Assembly: GCA_025935615.1 (NCBI GenBank)
Contig: JAICUY010000001.1
Span: forward strand, 688 to 64,687
Direction of reading: 5' to 3'
From: Steroidobacteraceae bacterium
Lineage (GTDB): Bacteria > Chloroflexota > Limnocylindria > QHBO01
Length of the DNA stretch: 64,000 nucleotides
The notes under the pieces are model-generated. The model did no database searches. It worked only from the letters and a program-made list of their open reading frames with translations, and was not told where the DNA came from. Below, one piece after another: positions 9,862 to 21,615 of the stretch; position 1 is the stretch's first letter; each line of letters starts with the position of its first letter. The position numbers were made by a program, and so were the translations under genes.

Positions 9862-11283
9862 ATGACCGATGCGCTGCCCGAGGTGCGGCTCTACAACTCG
9901 CTGACCAGATCGGTCGAGAGGCTGCGGCCGCTCGAACCGGGACGGGTCTCGATCTACACCTGCGGCAGCACGGTGTACCGCTACGCTCATATCGGCAACC
10001 TGCGGACCTACCTGTTCGGCGATCTCCTGCATCGGACGCTCGAGTACCTCGGCTACGAGGTGCGCTACGTGAAGAACATCACCGACGTCGGGCACATGCG
10101 CGACGACACGCCGGACCAGGACCGCATGGAGCTGGCGGCCGAAACCGAGGGCCGATCGCCGTCCGAGATCGCGCAGTTCTACACCGATGCCTGGCTCACC
10201 GACGAGCGGCTGCTCAACATCCTGCCGGCCGACGTCATGCCGCGTGCCACCGAGCACGTCCCGCAGATGCTCGAGCTGACCGCGACGCTGCTCGACAAGG
10301 GGCTGGCCTACGAGGTCGACGGCACGGTCTATTACGACGTCAGCGCCTTCGCGGGCTACGGCAAGCTGTCGGGGCAGCGGCTGGAGGAGATGAAGCCCGG
10401 GCATCGTGTCGACGTCGAGTCCGACAAGCGCGATCCGGAGGACTTCGCGCTGTGGAAGGCAGCCGGCGAGCATCGGCTCATGAAATGGCCATCACCCTGG
10501 GGCGATGGCTTCCCGGGATGGCACATTGAGTGCTCGGCCATGTCGATGCACTACCTCGGCGACCGCTTCGACGTCCACACCGGCGGGATCGATCTCAAGT
10601 TCCCCCACCACGAGGATGAGATCGCGCAATCCGAGGGCGCGCTCGGCCACCAGGTCGTGAGCATCTGGATGCACGGCGAGTTCCTCACCCTGGCCGACGC
10701 CAAGATGGCGAAATCCGCCGGCAACGTCATCCGCGTCGCCGATCTGCCGTCGAAGGGCTTTGAGCCGCTCGCCTTCCGCTACCTGGCGCTGACGGCACAC
10801 TACCGCTCGAAGCTCGACTTCACCGAGAGGGCCATGCACGCCGCGGCCTCGGCGCTCCGGCGCCTGCGGCGAGCGGTCGCGGAAGGAGCATCCGAGCGGA
10901 CCGATGCGGACCTCTCCGCGGCGCCGCTGGCTGGCTATCGCGATCGTTTCGTGGCTGCCGTCTCGGAGGACCTCGGCCTGCCGGCGGCGTTGGCGGTCGC
11001 CCATGCCGTGGCGAGCGACGGCGACCTGACGCCGCCGCAGCGACGTGTGCTGCTGCTCGATTTCGATCGGGTGCTCGGATTGTCGCTGGACGCCCCGGTC
11101 GGCGGGGAGGTGGAGCTGCCGGAGGGCGCCGCCGCGCTGCTCGCCCGTCGGGCCGAGGCGCGCGAGGCACGCGATTTCGCGACCTCCGATGCGTTGCGCG
11201 ACGAGCTGGCGGCGCTCGGCGTCGAGGTCCGCGATACCCGCGACGGCCAGGTCACCACGGTCGCCGGCACCCGGTCCGGATGA
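9862..11283 (+). CDS. cysS: Cysteine--tRNA ligase
   Basis: HIGH-type motif YAHIGNLRTY, KMSKS-type motif KMAKSAGN, and WPSPWGDGFPGWHIECSAM. Confidence 0.95.
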   Translation: MTDALPEVRLYNSLTRSVERLRPLEPGRVSIYTCGSTVYRYAHIGNLRTYLFGDLLHRTLEYLGYEVRYVKNITDVGHMRDDTPDQDRMELAAETEGRSPSEIAQFYTDAWLTDERLLNILPADVMPRATEHVPQMLELTATLLDKGLAYEVDGTVYYDVSAFAGYGKLSGQRLEEMKPGHRVDVESDKRDPEDFALWKAAGEHRLMKWPSPWGDGFPGWHIECSAMSMHYLGDRFDVHTGGIDLKFPHHEDEIAQSEGALGHQVVSIWMHGEFLTLADAKMAKSAGNVIRVADLPSKGFEPLAFRYLALTAHYRSKLDFTERAMHAAASALRRLRRAVAEGASERTDADLSAAPLAGYRDRFVAAVSEDLGLPAALAVAHAVASDGDLTPPQRRVLLLDFDRVLGLSLDAPVGGEVELPEGAAALLARRAEAREARDFATSDALRDELAALGVEVRDTRDGQVTTVAGTRSG

Positions 11284-11341
11284 GGTCATGGCGTCACGCC
11301 GGGCGAATGTTGCCGCGCTGCACCACGTGACGTGGATTTGC

Positions 11342-11371
11342 TTGACGGTGGTAGTACCGGGCTGGTACGTT
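11342..11371 (+). promoter_or_regulatory. Candidate sigma70-type promoter for the lasso precursor operon
   Basis: TTGACG, then 18 nt, then TACGTT, about 47 nt upstream of the precursor ATG. Pattern match only. Confidence 0.25.
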
Positions 11372-11417
11372 TCGCGCAAGGCGACGTGCCCTCACCATCG
11401 TCAGGAGAACTCTCATC

Positions 11418-11564
11418 ATGCAGATCGAGTACGAGGCGCCCCGGATCGAAGATCTGGGTTCCATCGCCGATCACACATTCGACAACCCGGGCAAGGGCGA
11501 CAAGTCGTCCGAGCCCATGGAGACTGACAAGTTCGGCGAGTATTCGCATCCCTTCGCCAGCTGA
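11418..11564 (+). CDS. Lasso peptide precursor (A peptide), 48 aa: MQIEYEAPRIEDLGSIADHTF / DNPGKGDKSSEPMETDKFGEYSHPFAS
   Basis: Not in the ORF track (<60 aa). AGGAGA lies 9 nt upstream of the ATG. The leader fits YxxPxLx3Gx5Tx (Y-17, P-14, I-12, G-8, T-2). Located immediately upstream of the lasso cyclase, RRE and the rest of the cluster. The translation was cross-checked against the overlapping track frames. Confidence 0.8.
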   Translation: MQIEYEAPRIEDLGSIADHTFDNPGKGDKSSEPMETDKFGEYSHPFAS

Positions 11565-11586
11565 CCAGCGCTCCGCTCTGACGACG

Positions 11587-11616
11587 AACCGGGCCTTCGG
11601 GCCCGGTTTTCGTTTC
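11587..11616 (+). terminator. Stem-loop plus U-rich tract just after the precursor gene (terminator/attenuator)
   Basis: aaccgggcc-ttcg-ggcccggtt (9 bp GC-rich stem, tetraloop) followed by ttcgtttcc. It sits between the precursor stop and the cyclase start. Confidence 0.5.
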
Positions 11617-11650
11617 CCGGCGATCAACCTCCACCCGTCACCCTGACGCC

Positions 11651-13429
11651 GTGGCTGCCATCGCGCTGGCCCATGGCCGGCAGTCAGCTCCCGCCGCGAG
11701 CGTGGTCGAGGCGATGCTCGCCGCCGCGCCGCACCGCGGCCCGACGCACCAGACCTTGATCCATGGCTCCACGGTGCTCGGAATCAGCCGCGGCGAGGAC
11801 GACGAGGACGCCTGTCTCGGGACTGACCGCGGCTTCGCGATCTGCTTCGCCGGTTCGTTCGACAACATGGCCGATCTCGGCATCGAGCTGGGGCTCGACG
11901 ACGGAAGCCGAACCGGGACCGTCGCCGACGTCCTGGGTGTCCTGGCCGAAGGCTACCGCCGCTTCCGCGAGGAGCTGCCGAACCGGATGCGCGGCGTCTA
12001 CGCCGTCGCCATCAGCGACGGCCAACGCGTGCTGTGCTTCCGCGACCACGTCGGCTACCGACCACTCTTCTATCGCTTCGACACGGACGCGCTGTACGCG
12101 GCCAGTGAAGCCAAGCAGGTCATCGCCGGTGCAGGCATCCCGCGTCAGCCGGACCTCGACGTGGTGGAGGCGATCTATTTCCGGACATATGACGACGCGA
12201 CGCCGGCGGCGCTGCGCGGCGTACGGCGGCTGCCCAAGGCGACCAGCCTGTCGCTTGCCGGGGGTCAACCGCGGCTGCAACGGTACTGGCATCCCGAACG
12301 GCTGCTCGAGACGGCCACCTTCAGCCGCGCCGAGCTGAAGGAACGATTCACGTCGCTCATGGAGCAGGCCGTCGGTCGCAGCCTCTCGCGGCCGGCCGCC
12401 ATCTCGCTCAGCGGCGGGATCGACTCTCCGGCGGTTGCCGCATTCGCCGCACCGATCCATCGCCACCGCTTCGGTCGCCCGCTGCAGGCCTTGTCCGTCG
12501 TGTACCCGCGCCATCCCTCGGTCGACGAGAGCAGCTACGTCAAGATCGTCACCGCTGCGCTCGATATCCCACTGCATGCCTACGAGCAGACGGCGAACGC
12601 CGTCGCCGATCTGCGGCGCTGGACCGCATTGGCCGATACGCCGTATCCGGCCGCGGCCCTGGCCCAATACGAGGAGGACTACCTCCGCGCCCGGGCTTTG
12701 GACGCCCGCGTCCTGCTGACCGGGGAGCACGCCGAATTCGTGATGGGCATGCAATGGCACGTCCTCGACCACCTGCTGACGCACCGCCGCTGGACCCCCG
12801 CGGCGCGGCAGCTGCGCGAGCGGCGCGGCCGCGGTGCATCGTGGATTGGCCTGACCCGCCTGGTGTTGCGCTCGCTGGCCTCGGACCGCGTGATGGCCGC
12901 GCGCAACCGCTTCGCTGCCCGACCGGCCAGCGTTCCGGCCTGGATCGACCGGAGCCGGCTCGTTCCCGACGATCCCGTCTCGGCGCGCGAACGATGGCGC
13001 GACTCGCAATTGACCGGCTTCGTCGGCCCCGGCATCTCACTCGAAGCGGAGGAGGTCTGCCAGCAGGTCTGCGGCGTGCGATCGCGCAAGCCGTGGACCG
13101 ATATCGACCTCTGGGAGTTCTTCCTCAGCCTGCCGGCCGAGATGAAGTTCCCCGACCTGCGGGCGAAGGGCCTGGTGCGCGACCTGCTCCGCGGACGCGT
13201 GCCGGATGAAATCCTCGACCGGCGCGACAAGACGGTCTTCGATGCAGCCGCGATGGCCGACGTCGACTACGCCGCGCTGCGCGGCCTGCTGATCGATTCG
13301 CCGCACCGGATCAGCGGCGTCGATTATCGGCGACTGGCCGCGGCGCTCGACGCCGAGCGACTGACCCCGATCGAGTACCGCTGGGCGCGGAACCTCGCCA
13401 ACGTCCACGCATTCCTGTCACAGTGGTGA
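11651..13429 (+). CDS. Lasso peptide macrolactam synthetase (C protein; asparagine synthetase B-like)
   Basis: 592 aa. PP-loop-type LSGGIDSPAVAAFA. AsnB-like architecture. Sits between the precursor and the PqqD-like gene. Confidence 0.85.
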   Translation: MAAIALAHGRQSAPAASVVEAMLAAAPHRGPTHQTLIHGSTVLGISRGEDDEDACLGTDRGFAICFAGSFDNMADLGIELGLDDGSRTGTVADVLGVLAEGYRRFREELPNRMRGVYAVAISDGQRVLCFRDHVGYRPLFYRFDTDALYAASEAKQVIAGAGIPRQPDLDVVEAIYFRTYDDATPAALRGVRRLPKATSLSLAGGQPRLQRYWHPERLLETATFSRAELKERFTSLMEQAVGRSLSRPAAISLSGGIDSPAVAAFAAPIHRHRFGRPLQALSVVYPRHPSVDESSYVKIVTAALDIPLHAYEQTANAVADLRRWTALADTPYPAAALAQYEEDYLRARALDARVLLTGEHAEFVMGMQWHVLDHLLTHRRWTPAARQLRERRGRGASWIGLTRLVLRSLASDRVMAARNRFAARPASVPAWIDRSRLVPDDPVSARERWRDSQLTGFVGPGISLEAEEVCQQVCGVRSRKPWTDIDLWEFFLSLPAEMKFPDLRAKGLVRDLLRGRVPDEILDRRDKTVFDAAAMADVDYAALRGLLIDSPHRISGVDYRRLAAALDAERLTPIEYRWARNLANVHAFLSQW

Positions 13430-13722
13430 ACGTGGAGATCACGGTCGAATCGGTCGTCCAGCGCAACCCGCAGGTCGTCGGCCGCGCCCTGGCGCCGGGC
13501 GAGGGGGGCGTCCTGCTCCACCTCTCGACCGCGGCCTACCATCGGGTGAACCCGGTGGGACTGGCGATCTGGGACCTCCTCGAGCATCCGCGCCGCGTCG
13601 ACGACGTCATCACCGCGCTGCGCGAAACCGTGGCGAATGCGCCGGCTGCGCTCGACCGCGACGTGCTCACCTTCCTGCAGTCGGTGGTGGATCGTGACCT
13701 CGTGCTCGTGGAAGAGGCCTAA
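13423..13722 (+). CDS. PqqD-like RiPP recognition element (lasso B1 protein)
   Basis: 99 aa. PqqD-family pattern: GGVLLHLSTAAYHRVNPVGLAIWDLLEHPRRVDDVITAL...DVLTFLQSVVDRDLV. Overlaps the cyclase stop by 7 nt. Confidence 0.8.
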   Translation: MVNVEITVESVVQRNPQVVGRALAPGEGGVLLHLSTAAYHRVNPVGLAIWDLLEHPRRVDDVITALRETVANAPAALDRDVLTFLQSVVDRDLVLVEEA

Positions 13723-15042: not shown

Positions 15043-15510
15043 CTATGCCGGACGGGGGTAGCGGGTCATCTCCTCGTAGCCGGCGCCACCAGGCGGCGGT
15101 CCGATGTCGCGGCCGTCGAGGAGGACCCAGGCGTGTGCATCGGGCGATGCGGCGCGGTGATGGAGACCAATGACCAGCTCGGCGGCGTCACCCTGCGCCC
15201 GCAACATCCGGTAGAGCACCAGCGCCCGCACCAGGCAACGCGGCTGCCAGGGACCGATGCGCAGGCCGCGGGTGACGGCGCGGCTCAGCAGCGCCAACGG
15301 GACGCGCTGGCGACTGGTGCCCGGCGGCGCCGATGCGACCGCCTGCAACGGCTGACGGCGCAACGCAACAGCCACGCGTGCGGCGCTGACCCAGACCCTC
15401 ACCAGCAGCCGCGCCTGCTCGCCACGCGAGGCAGGCTTCATGGCCGGCCCGGTCGGCGCGGGGGTCGATGACATGCGCGGATAGTGCCGCACGCGGCTCG
15501 CGCCCGCCAC
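15043..15510 (-). CDS. Lasso leader peptidase (B2 protein; transglutaminase-like Cys protease)
   Basis: CLVRALVLYRMLRAQG...ELVIGL...AHAWVLLDGRDIG matches the B2 Cys...His core pattern. The start may be 15510 or the internal Met at 15474. Confidence 0.8.
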   Translation of the reverse strand: MAGASRVRHYPRMSSTPAPTGPAMKPASRGEQARLLVRVWVSAARVAVALRRQPLQAVASAPPGTSRQRVPLALLSRAVTRGLRIGPWQPRCLVRALVLYRMLRAQGDAAELVIGLHHRAASPDAHAWVLLDGRDIGPPPGGAGYEEMTRYPRPA

Positions 15511-15519
15511 GGGCGCGGG

Positions 15520-16446
15520 TCAGCGCACGTTCGCGACCAGTCGTTCGAGCGCATCGATCACCTCCTGCATGCGGGCCATGCTGAGCGGCCGGTGGAGGTC
15601 GTAGGCCGGAACGCGAGACGTCAGGTCGACCACGCGCGCGAAGCAGGAACGGCGCGAGTCGTCCGTCGGAAGACGGAAGCTGAGCGCGAAGAGGTCCCGT
15701 GTCGCGCCGGCGGCATCCAGCGGGCGGATGCCGAGCTGATCGGCCCGCCGCAGCAGGACGATGGCGCGCAGCGGGACCGGCCGTCCGTCGCCCCGTCGCG
15801 CCTGGTCGAAGATTATCGCCTGCCGGCCAGCGTCCGACGAGCCTTCCGCATGACGTGCGCCCGGCAGCCGCAGAAGCTGCGCAACGTCCGGCCGCAGGCG
15901 AACCGCCGCCGGTCCGGGGTACAGGGCCGGCTCGGCACCAAGTGCGCAGCGCACCGTGTCTTCGGCCAGCAGCCGGTGGCCGACGGCGGCCAGCCCCGCA
16001 GCCAGGGTCGTCTTGCCGTGCATGCTCGGTCCTGCCAGCAGCAGCGCGCTGCCGCCGATCTCGACCGCCGAGGCGTGGACCGACAGGTCGCCGGCATGCA
16101 GCGCGCACAACGCGGCCGGGATGCCAAGCAGGCGCAACTCGCGTCGCAACGGCTCGGCGCCGCCTTCGACCCGGATCCGCGCGTCATCGGGTGCCACTTC
16201 GTAGCGACCGACGTCGCTTGCCCAGAAGACGTACCTGGTGCCCTGCCGGTGCAGCGTGGCGTGGAACGGGTTGTCCGGCCGCGCATGCCACACCGCGATG
16301 GGCTCGCCGCTGGGCGGCGGCAGATTCGCCTCCTCGACGAGGAGCGGCGTTTCGCCGGAATCGGAGCGCAGCGTCTGGAACGGCAGCGACGATCGCAGCC
16401 CGAAGCCGACGGCGCTGCCGACGACGTCGCGAGAGGGACCTGGCAT
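15520..16446 (-). CDS. HPr kinase/phosphorylase-like protein kinase (lasso precursor Ser kinase type)
   Basis: HASAVEIGGSALLLAGPSMHGKTTLAAGL (HprK C-terminal domain with P-loop). The ATG lies 5 nt after the permease stop. The N-terminal 256 aa of track ORF 15520-17217 are an out-of-frame overlap of the permease gene. Confidence 0.72.
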   Translation of the reverse strand: MPGPSRDVVGSAVGFGLRSSLPFQTLRSDSGETPLLVEEANLPPPSGEPIAVWHARPDNPFHATLHRQGTRYVFWASDVGRYEVAPDDARIRVEGGAEPLRRELRLLGIPAALCALHAGDLSVHASAVEIGGSALLLAGPSMHGKTTLAAGLAAVGHRLLAEDTVRCALGAEPALYPGPAAVRLRPDVAQLLRLPGARHAEGSSDAGRQAIIFDQARRGDGRPVPLRAIVLLRRADQLGIRPLDAAGATRDLFALSFRLPTDDSRRSCFARVVDLTSRVPAYDLHRPLSMARMQEVIDALERLVANVR

Positions 16447-16451
16447 GCCGC

Positions 16452-17285
16452 TCAGTACTGCGACAGGGAGCCGTCGGTCTGGGCGAAGCGGATGGCCCGG
16501 CCGCAGGCCCACAGCCCCAGCGGCACCAGCAGCACGCCGAGCGCAGCGAGCGCGGCGAAGTGCGGCCACAGGGTGGCAAATCCTTCCCCACTCAGCGTCG
16601 AACGCCGCATCAGCTCGAGGGCGTGCGTCAGCGGCAGAAGCTGCGCGAGCGCCTGCAGCCAGACGGGGAGCACGCTGACGGGGTAGAAGACCCCGGCCAA
16701 CAGCACCGACGCCATGCCGAGCAGCAGGCTGATGGGGTTGCCCTGCTTGACGACGATCACCACGCTTGCTGCGACGAGACCCATCCCGTTGAAGGCGACC
16801 ACCGACAGCGCCAGCGCCGCCAGCGCGACCGGCACGTTGGCGCTGCCGAGGTCGAGCCCGAGCGCCAGGCCGACCACGGCGTAGACGAGCAGCGTGACGA
16901 CTGCCATGGCGTGCGCCCAGAGCGAGGCACCGACCAGCAGGACCCATAACCGATTCGGGCTGAGCAGCATGAGCTCCAGCGTTCCCATCAGCTGACCTTC
17001 GCGGACCCGGGAGCTGATGCCCGACAGGCCCAGCGCCAGCAGGTTGGACAGCGCAATGCCGACAAGCGCGAAGGCAAAGTAGTTGCCGCCGTAGGCACTC
17101 AGGTTGCCACCGAGCTGGCCGCCGAAGGCGCGGCCCAGGAAATAGACGCTCAGCACGCTGGCCAGCGACCCGCCGGTCGACAGCAGGAAGCCCATTCGAT
17201 AGCTGGTGGCCGTCCACATGTCGCGAATGAATGTCGCCCCGAGCACGCGCGGCCAGCCGTCCATCACCCGCTCAAGCATCGGCAT
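16452..17285 (-). CDS. ABC-2 type transporter permease
   Basis: 277 aa with about 6 TM segments. Overlaps the ATPase gene end by 14 nt. Confidence 0.8.
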   Translation of the reverse strand: MPMLERVMDGWPRVLGATFIRDMWTATSYRMGFLLSTGGSLASVLSVYFLGRAFGGQLGGNLSAYGGNYFAFALVGIALSNLLALGLSGISSRVREGQLMGTLELMLLSPNRLWVLLVGASLWAHAMAVVTLLVYAVVGLALGLDLGSANVPVALAALALSVVAFNGMGLVAASVVIVVKQGNPISLLLGMASVLLAGVFYPVSVLPVWLQALAQLLPLTHALELMRRSTLSGEGFATLWPHFAALAALGVLLVPLGLWACGRAIRFAQTDGSLSQY

Positions 17286-18267
17286 GCACCGCGCGATAGA
17301 CGTCCTCGAGGGTCGGCTCTCGCGTCGTACAGCCCTCGATCCGCAGTCCGCGATCGAGCAGCAGCTGCAGCACGGCGCTCAGGGAGCCGCGGCCACGATC
17401 CAGGCGCACGCTGATGCGCGAGCCGACGGTCGCTGCCGTCACGTCGGCCGCTTCGACGCCCGGCAGATCACACAACGCCGCCCGCACGGGCTCGGTCCGA
17501 CCGTCGACCGCGAGCTCGACGAAGCTCGAGAGTCCCATCCGCGCGCTCAGCTCACTCATACTGCCGACCTCGATCATCGCGCCGCGCCGCATGATCGCGA
17601 TCCGATCGCAGATGGCCTCGGCTTCGGAGAGCGCGTGCGTCGCCAGGAAGACGGTGTATCCGCGCTTCCCGACGATGTGGCTGGTGATGTAGGTGCGCAG
17701 CTCGTCCGCCGCGATCGGATCGAGGGCGCGAGTCGGCTCATCGAGAAACAGGATCTGCGGATCGGTCAGCATGCCGCGCGCGATTCCGAACTTCTGGCGG
17801 GTGCCGGTCGAATAGCTGTCGAAGCGCCGGTCGGCATACTCGCTGACGCCCAGCGTATCCAGCAGCTCGTCGATGCGCCGATCGATCAGGCGGCGCGGCA
17901 CGTGGTACAGCGTCGCGAAGTACCACAGGTTCTGGCGTCCGGTGAGGCGCCAGTAGAAGCTGCGTTCGTCACCACTCACCAGCCCGATCAGCTGCCGGAC
18001 GCGATGCGGCTCGTCCACCACGTCGTGGCCGCCCACCAGCGCACGCCCCGAGGTCGGAAGCAGGGTCGTCGTCAGCATCCGGATCAGCGTCGTCTTTCCC
18101 GCACCGTTCTCGCCGAGCAGACCGAACAGCTCGCCGCGCCGCACACTCAGGTCGACGCCGTCGACGGCGGCGTCGCGTGCCGGCTGACGACCGTAGCGCA
18201 GCAGGTCCCGATAGCCGCTCACACGGCGGAACCGCTTGGTCAGATGCTCCGTTTCGATCGCGTTCAC
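17272..18267 (-). CDS. ABC transporter ATP-binding protein (DrrA/ABC-2 type)
   Basis: Walker A GENGAGKTT, signature YSTGTRQKF, Walker B ILFLDEPT. A GTG at 18267 is preceded by GGAG. The track ORF extends to 18369. Confidence 0.88.
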   Translation of the reverse strand: MNAIETEHLTKRFRRVSGYRDLLRYGRQPARDAAVDGVDLSVRRGELFGLLGENGAGKTTLIRMLTTTLLPTSGRALVGGHDVVDEPHRVRQLIGLVSGDERSFYWRLTGRQNLWYFATLYHVPRRLIDRRIDELLDTLGVSEYADRRFDSYSTGTRQKFGIARGMLTDPQILFLDEPTRALDPIAADELRTYITSHIVGKRGYTVFLATHALSEAEAICDRIAIMRRGAMIEVGSMSELSARMGLSSFVELAVDGRTEPVRAALCDLPGVEAADVTAATVGSRISVRLDRGRGSLSAVLQLLLDRGLRIEGCTTREPTLEDVYRAVHADA

Positions 18268-18461
18268 ACGACGCTCCGCTGGTCCTCGGCTCCCTCCGTT
18301 CGCCGGCACATGATGCCGGGCGGCGCGAAGGGGTGGCAGTATGCATCGCCTAGCGGTCGCGCGCCGCATGACGTTCAGTCGCCGGGAGGCCCACTCTGCC
18401 GTTCCTTCGTCGGTTTTCCGGTCGGCGCCTTCCGGGCACCCGATCCGAGCGCGACGCAGCG

Positions 18462-19586
18462 GTGCGCCTACTGTGCCTCTTGGTGGCGGATGAGGCGCCC
18501 GCGCCGGACACGGTCATGGCGCTGCTCCGCCAGACGACCGTGCCCGCTGTCCTGGCGCTCGCGCGCTACCACGCCGTGGCCGGACTCGCCTACGAGCGCC
18601 TCGATCCAGTGCCGGTGCCTGAGCCGTTGCTTCGCGGCCTGGCAGATCTTCGCGAGCAGGCGGTCCGCCGTCACCTCCTGGTGACCTGGGCGCTCGCCCG
18701 GCTGCAGCCACTCCTCGACGCGTCCTCCGTGGCGTGGTCGGTCGTCAAAGGGCCGGTGCTCGCAGAGCTGTACGCGGCGCCGGGGCGGCGCAGCTATCGC
18801 GATCTCGATCTGCTCGTCGATCCTGCGGGCTTTCCCGACGTCCTCGCACGTCTCCAGGAGGCGGGCGGCGAGCTGCTCGATACCAACTGGCGCGTCCTTC
18901 GTCGTGAGCTGCGTGGCGAGCTCCACCTCGTCCTGTCCGGTGGCGTGCCACTCGACCTGCACTGGTCGCTGATCAACATGTATCGGGCCGATACGGCTAT
19001 CGACACGTCCGAGATCCTGGGACGGCGGGTGGCGGTCGAGCTCGGCGGCGTGCCCGCCTGGAGCCTCGAGCCCAGCGACCGACTCATCCATCTGGCGGTT
19101 CACGGAGCGCTGTCAGGCGCCGACCGGCTGGTGTGGATCAAGGATGTGGACCTCGCCGCTCGTGACGCGGCGGTCGATTGGAGCGCGGTCGCCGAGCGAA
19201 GCCGCCGTTGGAAGGTGGCGCGCCCGGTGGGGCTGATGCTGTACCGCGCCGCACGCACCCTCGAGACGCCGCTGCCCCGTGGTCTCGCGGACAGCCTGCT
19301 GGGGCGCCGCTACCGCCGTGTCGCCGACCTCATCGACCGATACTCGCCCTGGCAGCAGGCGCTCGGCAGGGTGACGACGCCGAGCCTGCTGCTGGCGCGC
19401 AGCAGCGGCCAGGGCCCGGTCGGGACGATCGGCTGGCTCGCGCGACGGACGGTTCGCAATCTCGACCCGCGCGAGCCGGCCGCCTCGTCGGCGTTCACGC
19501 CAGCCGGCAGCGACGACGACCGCCGCGCCTACCTAGCGGCGGTCGCCGACGTGGCCAATCCTGCTCGGCGCTCGGTCAGGGAGTGA
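18462..19586 (+). CDS. Nucleotidyltransferase-family protein (uncharacterised NTP_transf_5 / PF14907 type)
   Basis: YRDLDLLVDPAGF (DxD) and LDLHWSL pattern. GTG start. Divergent from the ABC/kinase operon. Confidence 0.68.
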   Translation: MRLLCLLVADEAPAPDTVMALLRQTTVPAVLALARYHAVAGLAYERLDPVPVPEPLLRGLADLREQAVRRHLLVTWALARLQPLLDASSVAWSVVKGPVLAELYAAPGRRSYRDLDLLVDPAGFPDVLARLQEAGGELLDTNWRVLRRELRGELHLVLSGGVPLDLHWSLINMYRADTAIDTSEILGRRVAVELGGVPAWSLEPSDRLIHLAVHGALSGADRLVWIKDVDLAARDAAVDWSAVAERSRRWKVARPVGLMLYRAARTLETPLPRGLADSLLGRRYRRVADLIDRYSPWQQALGRVTTPSLLLARSSGQGPVGTIGWLARRTVRNLDPREPAASSAFTPAGSDDDRRAYLAAVADVANPARRSVRE

Positions 19587-21615
19587 CGGCCAGCTGATCC
19601 CAGGTCGCGGGAAAGACCGGCGAATTCAGACCCTGCGAGGTGGCGATGATGCCCGCGGCCAGCGGCCGGCCGTCGAGCCACGAGGCCGGGACCGTGCGCC
19701 GGGCGTCGTTGCCGCCGAAGTCACGCCAGTGATCGCCACCGTCGAGCGAGTACTTCGGCACATACGTGTTCGTCGCCGTCTTGACCGCGATGCGCAGATC
19801 GACACACGCCGCACCCGCGATGTCCGGGTCGGCGCGGCGGCTGAGCCCACGGCCCGTCCCCCTGACCTCGCGGACGTCATGGACCGACGAGGTATCACCC
19901 TTCACGTCGACCACGGCCTTGATGTAGTCGTCCTGCTGGCCGAGCCCGAAGAACACGCCCACCGCCTGGTAGGGCACGTCCGGATACGGTGAGCACACGC
20001 GACCCCGCACGAAGAAGTTCGTGCCATTCGGGACGAAGGCGCGCTGGAAGGCATAGCGCTGCCGATTCTCATGATCGATGGCATCGCCCTCCGGGACCGC
20101 ATTGATGGTGAGCCTGCCACCGCTGACATCGACGTTGGCGGCGTCGTACAGCGACGTGTACGGCCCATTGGCGTTGTACATCACGCCGTCGAAGCCGAGG
20201 TCCTGGAGCAGCGTGGCGTCGCTGACCGGTCCGTCGAAGTCGAGCGTGAACGAAGCCGCGGCTCCGCTGCCATTGGCCGGATCGAGTGCGAAGGCATCGC
20301 AACCGTCGCTGATGCCATCGCCATCGTGATCGCCGGCCATCGCCACAGTGACCGATACGGTGGCGGTGTCCGTCCCGCTGCGCCCGTCACCCACACGGTA
20401 GGTCAGCGTATCCGGGCCGGTGTACGAAGCGTCAGGACGGTAGCTGATGGCCCGGCCGTTGCGGACGATCGACGCCGTTCCATGACCCGGCTGGTTGGTG
20501 ATGCTCGTCATGCTCAGGTGATCGCCATCCGGATCGCTATCGTTGCGCAGCACCCAGAACAGGCGACTGCAGTCCTCGGCCACGGACATGGTGTCCGCCG
20601 CGGCAATCGGCGCGTGGTCACCGAGCGCCCGCGCCACCGCCGACGAAACCTGATCGGTCCCGCCGATGACGATGATCTTTGTCGGCGTCAGCCGCAGGAT
20701 TTCGCGCCGGGTGCTGGGCGGGATCGAGTCATGCTTGACGAGCAGCACCGGGCCCTGGCCCTTGGTGGCAGTCCCCGCGCCCATCGCATACGGCAGCGCC
20801 GTGCCGCTCACCACCCAGACGGTGGAGACCCGCGAAGTGAAGTGACGCCGACTGGTCTTGGCAACCGTCGAGTATTGCGTTGGGCCGGACTCGCGCCGCA
20901 CGGTGGCGATGGTGGCCAGCCGATCCGCGACGGCCGCCGAGATGACATCCGTGCCGCCGGCGATGATGATGCGATCGGGGTTGAGCCGGCGAAGCTCCGT
21001 AGCGGTCGACGCCGGTAGGCTGCCCGCGCGAGAGAACAGGATCGGTCCGCGCCCGTGGGCCGCGGGTGCGGCTCCCAGTGCCCAGGCGGCCTTGTTCGGG
21101 TTGGCGATGTACGCCATCTTGGCGCCCGCGTTGAATCGCGCCTGACTGACGTCAACCGCCGTGCCGTAGCGCGAATGGCCAGTGCGCCGCACGACCGGCG
21201 CGATCGCCCGCAGAGAGCGCCGGACGGCGGTTGACACCTGTCCGGCCGGACCGACGATCACGATGCGGTCGGGCCGCAGGCGCTCGAGCTCGTTGCGCGT
21301 CACGCTCGGAACGTGATCTCGCTTCACCAGCAGGACCGGTCCATGCTTGACCGCGGCAGCCGCCGCGACGAGTCCCTCGGCGGGACGATCACCGTTGACC
21401 ACGTAGACGACCGATACTCCGGCCGCGAAATGCAGCCGACTGACCCGCGCCGCGGTCGAGTACCGATTCGACCCGGCCTCGCGGATGTAGGTCGACGCGG
21501 CAACCGGCGCCGCGGATCGAAATGCGGGTGCGATCGAGGCTCCGGCGATAAGAAGGCCGGACATCAGACCAACGAAAACGGGCCGCACTGAACGGCCAAT
21601 GAGCAGGCTGGGCAC
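19576..21615 (-). CDS. Secreted multidomain surface protein: signal peptide, 3-4 cell-wall-binding-2 (CWB2)-like repeats, cadherin/Ig-like domain, Asp-rich calcium-type motif, C-terminal lectin/LamG-like domain
   Basis: Repeats of the type SGxxRYxTAxxVSxxxF...VVNG...VLL...P..T..EL.RL.P.RIxIxGG...VS. Also VLRNDSDPDGDHL and DHDGDGISDGCD. Confidence 0.7.
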   Translation of the reverse strand: MPSLLIGRSVRPVFVGLMSGLLIAGASIAPAFRSAAPVAASTYIREAGSNRYSTAARVSRLHFAAGVSVVYVVNGDRPAEGLVAAAAAVKHGPVLLVKRDHVPSVTRNELERLRPDRIVIVGPAGQVSTAVRRSLRAIAPVVRRTGHSRYGTAVDVSQARFNAGAKMAYIANPNKAAWALGAAPAAHGRGPILFSRAGSLPASTATELRRLNPDRIIIAGGTDVISAAVADRLATIATVRRESGPTQYSTVAKTSRRHFTSRVSTVWVVSGTALPYAMGAGTATKGQGPVLLVKHDSIPPSTRREILRLTPTKIIVIGGTDQVSSAVARALGDHAPIAAADTMSVAEDCSRLFWVLRNDSDPDGDHLSMTSITNQPGHGTASIVRNGRAISYRPDASYTGPDTLTYRVGDGRSGTDTATVSVTVAMAGDHDGDGISDGCDAFALDPANGSGAAASFTLDFDGPVSDATLLQDLGFDGVMYNANGPYTSLYDAANVDVSGGRLTINAVPEGDAIDHENRQRYAFQRAFVPNGTNFFVRGRVCSPYPDVPYQAVGVFFGLGQQDDYIKAVVDVKGDTSSVHDVREVRGTGRGLSRRADPDIAGAACVDLRIAVKTATNTYVPKYSLDGGDHWRDFGGNDARRTVPASWLDGRPLAAGIIATSQGLNSPVFPATWDQLAVTP

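Follow-up and report, generated by a model that had tools for sequence, protein, structure and literature searches.

A paeninodin-like lasso-type precursor peptide of an uncultured soil Chloroflexota bacterium, with ring chemistry that is probably not textbook

What peptide is made from the 48-codon open reading frame (ORF) that precedes a lasso-cyclase-like gene in contig JAICUY010000001.1, from an uncultured Limnocylindria bacterium? An earlier note, drawn from the letters of a 64,000-nucleotide stretch of this contig (the window, in whose numbering all positions are given), had proposed the ORF at 11418-11564 as a lasso precursor and had deduced from its leader where the peptide would be cut. 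In this report, we found that this ORF is almost certainly the real precursor gene of the cluster around it. By gene content and leader, the cluster is a paeninodin-like, kinase-associated one for a lasso-type peptide that is made on ribosomes and modified after translation (a RiPP). The ring chemistry of the core, judged by its conservation, is probably not that of the textbook.

The ORF and its AGGAGA Shine-Dalgarno sequence 9 nt upstream are present in the sequence and in the ORF list, as had been described. Three longer ORFs overlap it (11332-11646 on the forward strand, 11286-11627 and 11416-11634 on the reverse). These had been dismissed as implausible, and their codon composition bears this out: the GC content at third codon positions (GC3) is 0.47-0.60 and that at second positions (GC2) is 0.56-0.74, values that are not coding-like. 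The 48-codon frame has GC contents of 0.55, 0.41 and 0.82 at its three codon positions, much as the flanking real genes do in this 69% GC sequence, and it alone is coding-like when set against the three overlapping ORFs. Across 20 homologous loci, differences at position 3 of the frame are about twice as numerous as those at position 1 or 2, and 727 of the 1399 differing codons are synonymous; this pattern indicates that purifying selection acts on the frame. Further, GGAG-type motifs stand some 8-12 nt upstream of the start codon in most of the homologous loci. No sigma-70-like promoter was found upstream of the ORF. The note had described the ORF as un-called, which is true for a length-limited ORF track, but not for the gene calls of NCBI, JGI and Logan, where the exact peptide already stands as a "hypothetical protein".

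Relatives of the peptide are numerous. A word-indexed search gave at least 78 related clusters, almost all of 46-50 aa, and a scan of species-representative genomes gave 28 loci, all of them in metagenome-assembled genomes (MAGs) from soil. The latter belong to Gaiellaceae, Solirubrobacteraceae, Conexibacteraceae, Acidimicrobiales, Mycobacteriales, Limnocylindria, Chloroflexia, Vicinamibacterales, Binatia and Gemmatimonadaceae. Among what a profile search of 1.84 billion representatives recovered were precursors in which this leader precedes a textbook lasso core. In what follows, the close set comprises 99 distinct cores and the superfamily set 135 representatives. Every locus has the peptide gene close to a cyclase homologue, usually directly 5' of it, as in the window, where precursor and cyclase are co-oriented and genes for a RiPP recognition element (RRE) and a leader peptidase, B1 and B2, are also in the cluster. 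Homologues of B1, B2, the kinase, the ABC-2 permease and the NTP_transf_5 protein are found near the peptide gene in the 28 loci despite rearranged gene order, and the same gene set accompanies the distant superfamily members. An ScmC/HprK-like gene occurs in nearly all related loci.

Could the ORF nonetheless be a chance reading frame between CysS and the cyclase, either no gene at all or not the substrate of the cluster? A Pfam search matched the peptide to no family, and its score of 16.0 bits (E = 0.0094, residues 5-18) against the NCBIfam model lasso_leader_L3 (NF033521) misses the cut-off of 19, both of which would suit this alternative. Against it stand the relatives in at least 78 protein clusters and in 28 genomes at the species level, each time next to a cyclase, the selection on the frame with its coding-type GC3, and a leader motif far rarer by chance than it is seen. 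We regard the probability of a chance ORF as negligible, the idea being effectively refuted by the homologue, synteny and selection data. The reading of the ORF as a precursor thus gains from its position beside a cyclase homologue in every related locus examined and from the selection within its frame.

The leader carries the recognition pattern that had been ascribed to it, and this pattern is conserved across the family. A cut after Phe21 places Tyr5, Pro8, Ile10, Gly14 and Thr20 at -17, -14, -12, -8 and -2. The match to YxxPxLx3Gx5Tx had been called exact; all five positions do agree, except that Ile replaces Leu at -12. In the superfamily, this position is most often occupied by Ile (59 Ile, 51 Val, 25 Leu), and the motif in the literature is [Y/W]xxPx[L/V/I/F/A] (PMC13381572). 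Within the family, Pro8, Gly14 and Thr20 are invariant, while Tyr5, Asp12, Ile16, His19 and Phe21 are at least 90% conserved. The lasso_leader_L3 model matches 48 of 69 relatives at E <= 0.1, although among those scanned individually only P0025 (19.6 bits) passes its cut-off. Matches to the NCBIfam lasso_cyano and benenodin models align to the leader only and are therefore uninformative on the core. In the six frames of the window, the relaxed motif Y..P.[LIVM]...G.....T. is found a single time, where shuffled sequence would give about 0.12; if an acid at core positions 7-9 is also demanded, the expectation is 0.01. Other candidate precursors were rejected, as the motif occurs only this once and the remaining intergenic gaps of the cluster are too short. 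The earlier note had named two observations that would tell against its proposal, namely a lack of conservation near cyclases and a better rival ORF. Neither was made, because the ORF is conserved beside cyclases and no other ORF of the window has the leader motif. A full-text literature search for the leader sequence GSIADHTF found nothing, but supplements and subscription journals lay outside its coverage, and this negative is therefore weak evidence of novelty.

Cleavage at the Phe21-Asp22 bond, as the earlier note proposed, is very probable. It accords with the published spacing rule, in which YxxPxL occupies -17 to -12 (PMC10368454), and two comparative observations, both independent of this rule, support it. 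The sister precursor P0154 reads …GSISDHTF up to the cut and GKPGRHYDFGNFGSI after it, the same leader being followed by a textbook Gly1…Asp8 core; its locus contains a cyclase, B1, B2 and a kinase. Further, 74 of the 78 representatives that contain Cys have an even number of such residues, but only with a cut at offsets -2 to 0 from the end of T-x. In the eight sequences with a Cys in the leader, the count is even in all eight without the leader and in none with it. In the 41 with a Cys in the spacer between this cut and a conserved Lys (Lys29 here), it is even in 39 for spacer plus tail, but in only 5 for the tail alone. The spacer (residues 22-29 here) therefore seems to be kept in the product.

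These counts bear directly on another reading of the peptide, in which the leader is bipartite and the core begins after Lys29, between GDK and SSEPMETD. Residues 22-29 would be discarded, and an eight-residue Ser30-Asp37 ring would close in a 19-mer lasso, SSEPMETDKFGEYSHPFAS; calculated monoisotopic masses are 2126.89 Da for this lactam and 829.39 Da for the released octapeptide DNPGKGDK. With such a cut, the rings of most members would have the canonical size of 8 or 9, and many distant members would read [T/V/I]-K before it and G-C-x3-C-H-x-D after it, which is to say Thr, Val or Ile at -2, Gly1 and Asp9. The leader of microcin J25 likewise ends in T-K before a Gly. Ile or Val at -2 is known in phosphorylated lasso peptides (PMC10368454). 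However, the optimum of Cys parity falls at the end of T-x and not after Lys, and a distance from the RRE motif to the cut that varied between 5 and 47 residues would be hard to fit to the geometry of B1 and B2. Ala is absent after the Lys, where the turn-formers Gly, Ser, Asp and Asn dominate, and domain searches of the cluster revealed no second protease. We consider a second cut very unlikely, and it was dropped as the leading model on the Cys-parity tests. The cut at Phe21-Asp22, with residues 22-48 as the core, is the one on which the remainder of the argument is built.

Where, then, would the ring close? The core is nearly invariant across phyla (DNPGKGDKS…ETDKFGEYSHP), which to our knowledge is unusual among lasso peptides. 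In a canonical lasso peptide, the B2 cut would be followed by attack of the alpha-amine of Asp22 on Asp28, giving a seven-residue ring, a threaded tail of 20 residues and a phosphorylated Ser48. This reading has the default published rule on its side (PMC10368454), together with the full canonical enzyme set of the cluster. Asp occupies core position 7 not only in the window peptide but in 83 of the 99 close cores, and the xxPG of core positions 1-4 is shared with the canonical sister core GKPGRHYD. An ordinary lasso core, as the earlier note implied, is to this extent compatible with the window peptide itself. It does not extend to the family, in which the canonical acceptor is not conserved. 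Conservation is lower at Asp28 than at the invariant residues around it (Pro24, Gly25, Gly27 and Lys29), and at least three lineages with intact cyclases have Thr or Asn in its place (L010; L015, L017 and L020). No Asp or Glu occurs at positions 7-9 in 14 of the 99 close cores, among them QTPGKGTK… (Chloroflexia) and DNPGQGNK… (a Solirubrobacteraceae MAG), and full-length cyclases accompany such acid-less precursors (L010, L015, L017). In the superfamily, an acid at 7-9 is no commoner than chance (39 of 135, or 29%, versus 33% expected from composition). Canonical peptides, moreover, do not typically begin with Asp, nor is a 27-residue core with almost no variation typical of them; a literature search for a precedent for Asp1 returned irrelevant word-start matches only. 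Because the canonical acceptor is not conserved in the family, the product of residues 22-48 is probably non-canonical, and we consider the Asp22-Asp28 ring unlikely.

The residues that are conserved universally in the family are Lys29, Asp37, Glu41 and Ser43. A Lys stands 8-10 residues before the conserved Asp, itself part of a D-x-F-x-E-x-S block, in 93 of 109 representatives, and Arg takes its place in at most 3% of sequences at these offsets. By contrast, this Lys lies anywhere between 5 and 47 residues from the cleavage site. The identity of residue +1 varies widely (Gly in 9 and Pro in 2 of 135; Asp, Asn or Gln in the window peptide and its close relatives), a composition that is atypical for an alpha-amine nucleophile. 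The family thus has no conserved lasso ring acid and does have an invariant Lys…Asp pair, and its product may not be an ordinary lasso peptide. Some close cores (P0046, P0087) have no acids other than the equivalents of Asp37 and Glu41. We chose Asp37 as the probable ring acceptor because it and Glu41 are the only acids conserved throughout the family. With less assurance, we propose Lys29 as the nucleophile.

A ring between these two residues would explain why both are invariant, why their spacing is fixed, why Arg is excluded and why residue +1 is free to vary. The sequence of events might then be as follows. B1 would bind leader residues 1-21 through Tyr5, Pro8 and Ile10, as its homologues suggest, and the HprK-like kinase would phosphorylate the precursor, most likely at Ser48 as in paeninodin, with the invariant Ser43 as the alternative site. 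A C-terminal Ser is present in 67 of the 99 close and 70 of the 135 distant members, a strong enrichment that matches the kinase target reported for paeninodin and pseudomycoidin (PMC9266682). B2 would cut after Thr20-Phe21 to release the 27-residue core, DNPGKGDKSSEPMETDKFGEYSHPFAS, a step for which there is comparative support. The Asn-synthase-like cyclase would adenylate a side-chain carboxylate and close a macrolactam on Asp37. With the epsilon-amine of Lys29 as the nucleophile, the result would be a side-chain-to-side-chain ring of 9 residues that bears an N-terminal arm of 8 residues and a C-terminal tail of 11, rather than the seven-residue Asp22-Asp28 ring. Calculated monoisotopic masses are 2434.15 Da for the leader and, for residues 22-48, 2956.28 Da as the linear core, 2938.27 Da with one lactam (whichever ring is closed) and 3018.24 Da with a lactam and a phosphate. 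Finally, the NTP_transf_5 protein and a methyltransferase fusion would decorate the peptide, and the ABC-2 pump would export it. We put forward this whole chain, in which the peptide is a paeninodin-like, kinase-associated lasso-type precursor with a Lys29-Asp37 ring, as a tentative proposal.

The universally conserved Asp could also be used without a Lys nucleophile. After the Phe21-Asp22 cut, the alpha-amine of Asp22 could be joined to Asp37 in a 16-residue head-to-side-chain macrolactam, a lariat rather than a tight lasso. Such a ring would keep the known chemistry of lasso cyclases, in which the nucleophile is an alpha-amine that B2 must first expose. However, across the superfamily such rings would vary in size between about 13 and more than 50 residues, because the position of the Lys varies from 5 to 47, and the variability of residue +1, which includes Pro, is unfavourable. 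The invariance of Lys29, its spacing of 8-10 residues to the Asp and the absence of Arg would be left unexplained. We judge this lariat to be quite unlikely.

Several considerations weigh against the Lys29-Asp37 ring. We know of no lasso cyclase that uses a Lys side chain. The only documented Lys isopeptides are those of the class V lasso peptides (lariocidin B, gelatinamin A), which do offer a precedent for such a bond in a lasso-type peptide; there, however, it forms a second ring to the C-terminus after the canonical one, and is made by a separate clostripain-like transpeptidase (PMC13178200), an enzyme that is not in the window cluster. It is also unclear what chemical need the conserved B2 cleavage would serve if no alpha-amine were to act as nucleophile. 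As Asp is at core position 7, a canonical ring is chemically possible in this peptide. The Lys-Asp spacing could arise from enzyme recognition or from another modification of the Lys, for which the cluster has a methyltransferase. Further, the kinase, the cyclase and B1 all score under the cut-offs of their NCBIfam families, and the evidence for the production and cyclisation of the peptide is all comparative. Our order of preference is thus the Lys29-Asp37 ring, the Asp22-Asp28 ring, the Asp22-Asp37 ring and, last, the cut after Lys29. The remaining probability belongs to unforeseen chemistry, such as a different reaction of the Asn-synthase homologue or a modification of Lys by the methyltransferase.

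[quoted passage not shown] The D-x3-E-x2-H block (residues 37-44, DKFGEYSH, 11526-11549) is the most conserved part of the superfamily. In other subfamilies, His44 is replaced by Cys (…GEYSC, …GECSC) and Tyr42 by Cys. The i/i+4/i+7 spacing of Asp, Glu and His or Cys looks like a metal- or ligand-binding face, or a recognition element for the cyclase or kinase. A C-terminal sequence that serves as a follower-like recognition element has been shown for triculamin (10.64898/2026.07.03.736388), and by analogy the conserved block could in part be such an element. The majority of the distant members (P0092-P0236) read HTF-x-T-P-G-G, the window subfamily having Asn23 (11484-11486) in the place of that Thr. 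This Thr and the leader Tyr are 19 residues apart, a distance equal to that for the phosphorylated Ser3 in precursors of linear polyphosphorylated peptides (LPPs; PMC13381572) and one residue shorter than that for Ser3 in BsfA (PMC10368454); by analogy, it may be the kinase site in the distant subfamilies. The precursors of Gemmatimonadaceae MAGs (L030-L034) have the same leader and the same …CDKFGEYSH block, with a spacer of 31-41 residues between them. Exactly two conserved Cys residues follow the leader, the first within the spacer and the second immediately ahead of the conserved Asp, an arrangement that suggests a disulfide. A tblastn search of the fetched flanks of these loci revealed no B2 homologue.

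How does this system compare to those already described? Paeninodin-like lasso clusters are marked, according to the literature, by a kinase together with this type of nucleotidyltransferase; in them, the kinase phosphorylates the C-terminal Ser and the nucleotidyltransferase homologue adds a hexose (PMC9266682, PMC13381572, PMC10368454). The window cluster shares with those of paeninodin (PadeA) and pseudomycoidin (PsmA/K/N) a precursor, a cyclase, split B1 and B2, an HprK-like kinase, an NTP_transf_5-type nucleotidyltransferase and a transporter. The leader has the same aromatic-xx-P-x-aliphatic pattern with Thr at -2, and the peptide ends in Ser, the documented kinase target (PMC9266682, PMC13381572). 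However, paeninodin and pseudomycoidin are canonical, the alpha-amine of residue 1 being joined to Asp or Glu at core 7-9, whereas the present family has no conserved acceptor, a core that begins with Asp, Asn or Gln and is nearly invariant across phyla, an invariant block in which Lys is followed after 8-10 residues by Asp-x-F-x-E-x-S, and an additional gene for a methyltransferase fusion. The hosts also differ, being uncultured soil Chloroflexota, Actinomycetota, Gemmatimonadota and others here and Bacillota for the paeninodin type.

The BsfA/BsfK system of Bradymonas sediminis likewise has genes A, B1, B2, C, D, K and N and YxxPxL at -17 to -12. There, the motif assigns the cleavage site, and the kinase and B2 are both aided by B1 (PMC10368454). 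In BsfA, position -2 is Ile, residue 1 is Gly, residue 8 is Asp and Ser3 is phosphorylated, whereas in the window peptide position -2 is Thr, residue 1 is Asp and core positions 1-8 contain neither Ser nor Thr. Canonical actinobacterial lasso leaders that discrete RREs read, such as TbiA of the fusilassin type, share YxxPxLx3Gx5Tx, and the nearest solved structure to B1 is TbiB1; the window leader, by contrast, scores under the lasso_leader_L3 cut-off and is followed by no conserved acceptor past the cut. The LPP systems (PMC13381572) have a related leader (YxxPxVLxHQxIxFET), an RRE, an HprK-like kinase and an NTP transferase. They lack a cyclase and B2, both of which the window has; their leader peptidase is like signal peptidase I, and their products are linear.

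The features of the locus are collected in Table 1. The map derives from an analysis of GC by reading frame and from domain searches, and the features expected of a paeninodin-like cluster (the kinase, the NTP_transf_5 protein, the C-terminal Ser, split B1 and B2, and the leader motif) are all present.

Table 1. Features of the precursor locus, with positions in the window
Feature	Position	Strand	Remarks
CysS	9862-11283	+	
Shine-Dalgarno AGGAGA	11403-11408	+	9-nt spacer to ATG; read from sequence
Precursor peptide gene (A)	11418-11564	+	48 codons plus stop; ATG start; product MQIEYEAPRIEDLGSIADHTFDNPGKGDKSSEPMETDKFGEYSHPFAS
Leader, residues 1-21	11418-11480	+	MQIEYEAPRIEDLGSIADHTF; YxxPxI RRE-binding motif, Gly -8, Thr -2, Phe -1
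Core, residues 22-48	11481-11561	+	DNPGKGDKSSEPMETDKFGEYSHPFAS; unusually conserved
Lys29 codon	11502-11504	+	
Asp37 codon	11526-11528	+	
C-terminal Ser48 codon	11559-11561	+	
GC-rich hairpin and U-tract	11580-11618	+	between precursor stop and cyclase start
Asn-synthase homologue, lasso-cyclase-like (C)	11651-13429	+	Pfam Asn_synthase 2.3e-28, GATase_7
B1, PqqD-like RiPP recognition element	13423-13722	+	Pfam PqqD 3.5e-13
Fusion protein, 439 aa	13719-15038	-	N-terminal half of unknown family; HemK/PrmC-like methyltransferase C-terminal
B2, transglutaminase-like leader peptidase	15043-15510	-	Pfam Transglut_core3 7.5e-16; CLVRA…HAWV in translation
HprK/ScmC-like peptide kinase (K)	15520-16446	-	limits from GC frame analysis and public call
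ABC-2 permease	16452-17285	-	putative exporter
ABC ATPase	17272-18369	-	putative exporter
NTP_transf_5 protein (PsmN/BsfN-like)	18462-19586	+	Pfam PF14907 8.7e-44

By its domain matches, the cyclase homologue is a divergent enzyme of the Asn-synthase family. It aligns partially to the NCBIfam model lass_lactam_cya (NF033535; 145.7 bits over residues 68-390), without reaching the cut-off of 525. The longest ORF begins with GTG at 11651 (592 aa) and the public calls with ATG at 11714 (571 aa). With either start, the N-terminal Cys that serves glutamine-dependent Asn synthases as nucleophile is missing, an absence that is expected for lasso cyclases. Among solved structures, only a hydroxyamidotransferase and AsnB were found as relatives, and no lasso cyclase relative that would allow a comparison of active sites. 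The protein at 13423-13722, to which the earlier note had pointed, is an RRE of the PqqD family in Pfam. The lasso_PqqD models match it under their cut-offs, and its best solved structure is that of TbiB1 (5v1u, 1.2e-7), a lasso RRE. The kinase is likewise matched under the cut-offs, by Hpr_kinase_C (7.3e-6) and HprK_rel_A (2.2e-9).

The C-terminal half of the fusion protein resembles methyltransferases of the N5-glutamine type (TIGR03534, 5e-29, under the cut-off). Its N-terminal segment of about 210 aa has no Pfam match and is weakly similar to the neighbouring NTP_transf_5 protein (E = 0.025). Homologues of the fusion recur in related clusters (L008, L012, L015, L017, L021, L022); candidate substrates are Lys29, Asn23 or the N-terminus of the peptide.

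The hairpin between the precursor and the cyclase has a 10-bp stem (CCGGGCC…) and a UUCG loop. The minimum free energy of the intergenic region is -34.1 kcal/mol (z = -3.4), and none of 200 shuffles folds as well. A consensus terminator scan did not flag the hairpin, and Rfam gave nothing at threshold for it or for the ORF region; a known RNA element overlapping the ORF was rejected, the hairpin having attracted only sub-threshold noise. The hairpin is likely an attenuator or terminator, and as an attenuator it would set the ratio of precursor to enzymes. An attenuator between a RiPP precursor gene and the genes for its enzymes is an expected arrangement.

On its 5' side, the precursor follows CysS immediately, across a 134-nt gap with a small hairpin (11323-11335). 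Another Candidatus Limnocylindria MAG (L008) also has a CysS homologue (76% identity), some 4.6 kb upstream of a precursor that is 83% identical to the window peptide. At the other end, the cluster is adjoined by a reverse-strand gene (19576-21615) for a protein of 679 aa that contains three CWB2 repeats for cell-wall binding together with a cadherin-like/Big_9 domain, and that is probably an unrelated surface protein.

These results assign a function to a small gene that has been listed as a "hypothetical protein", and, in an uncultured soil bacterium of high GC content, they complete a lasso cluster of the paeninodin type. The peptide family has hundreds of metagenomic members in several phyla, and it combines the full lasso machinery and leader with the lack of the residue that defines ring closure. 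As we understand them, standard precursor-scoring rules require Asp or Glu at core 7-9; so understood, they would mis-score or skip most of these precursors. It is conceivable, though we hold it more loosely than the proposal for the window peptide, that the superfamily as a whole, in soil Chloroflexota, Actinomycetota, Gemmatimonadota, Acidobacteriota and Binatia, joins the equivalents of Lys29 and Asp37 by means of the cyclase homologue. If such a cross-link is real, the chemistry of lasso cyclases would be wider than is known, and a nine-gene cluster would give rise to a new peptide topology, a "two-armed" isopeptide ring. The nearly invariant D-K-F-G-E-Y-S-H tail would then point to a conserved target or ligand, possibly a metal.

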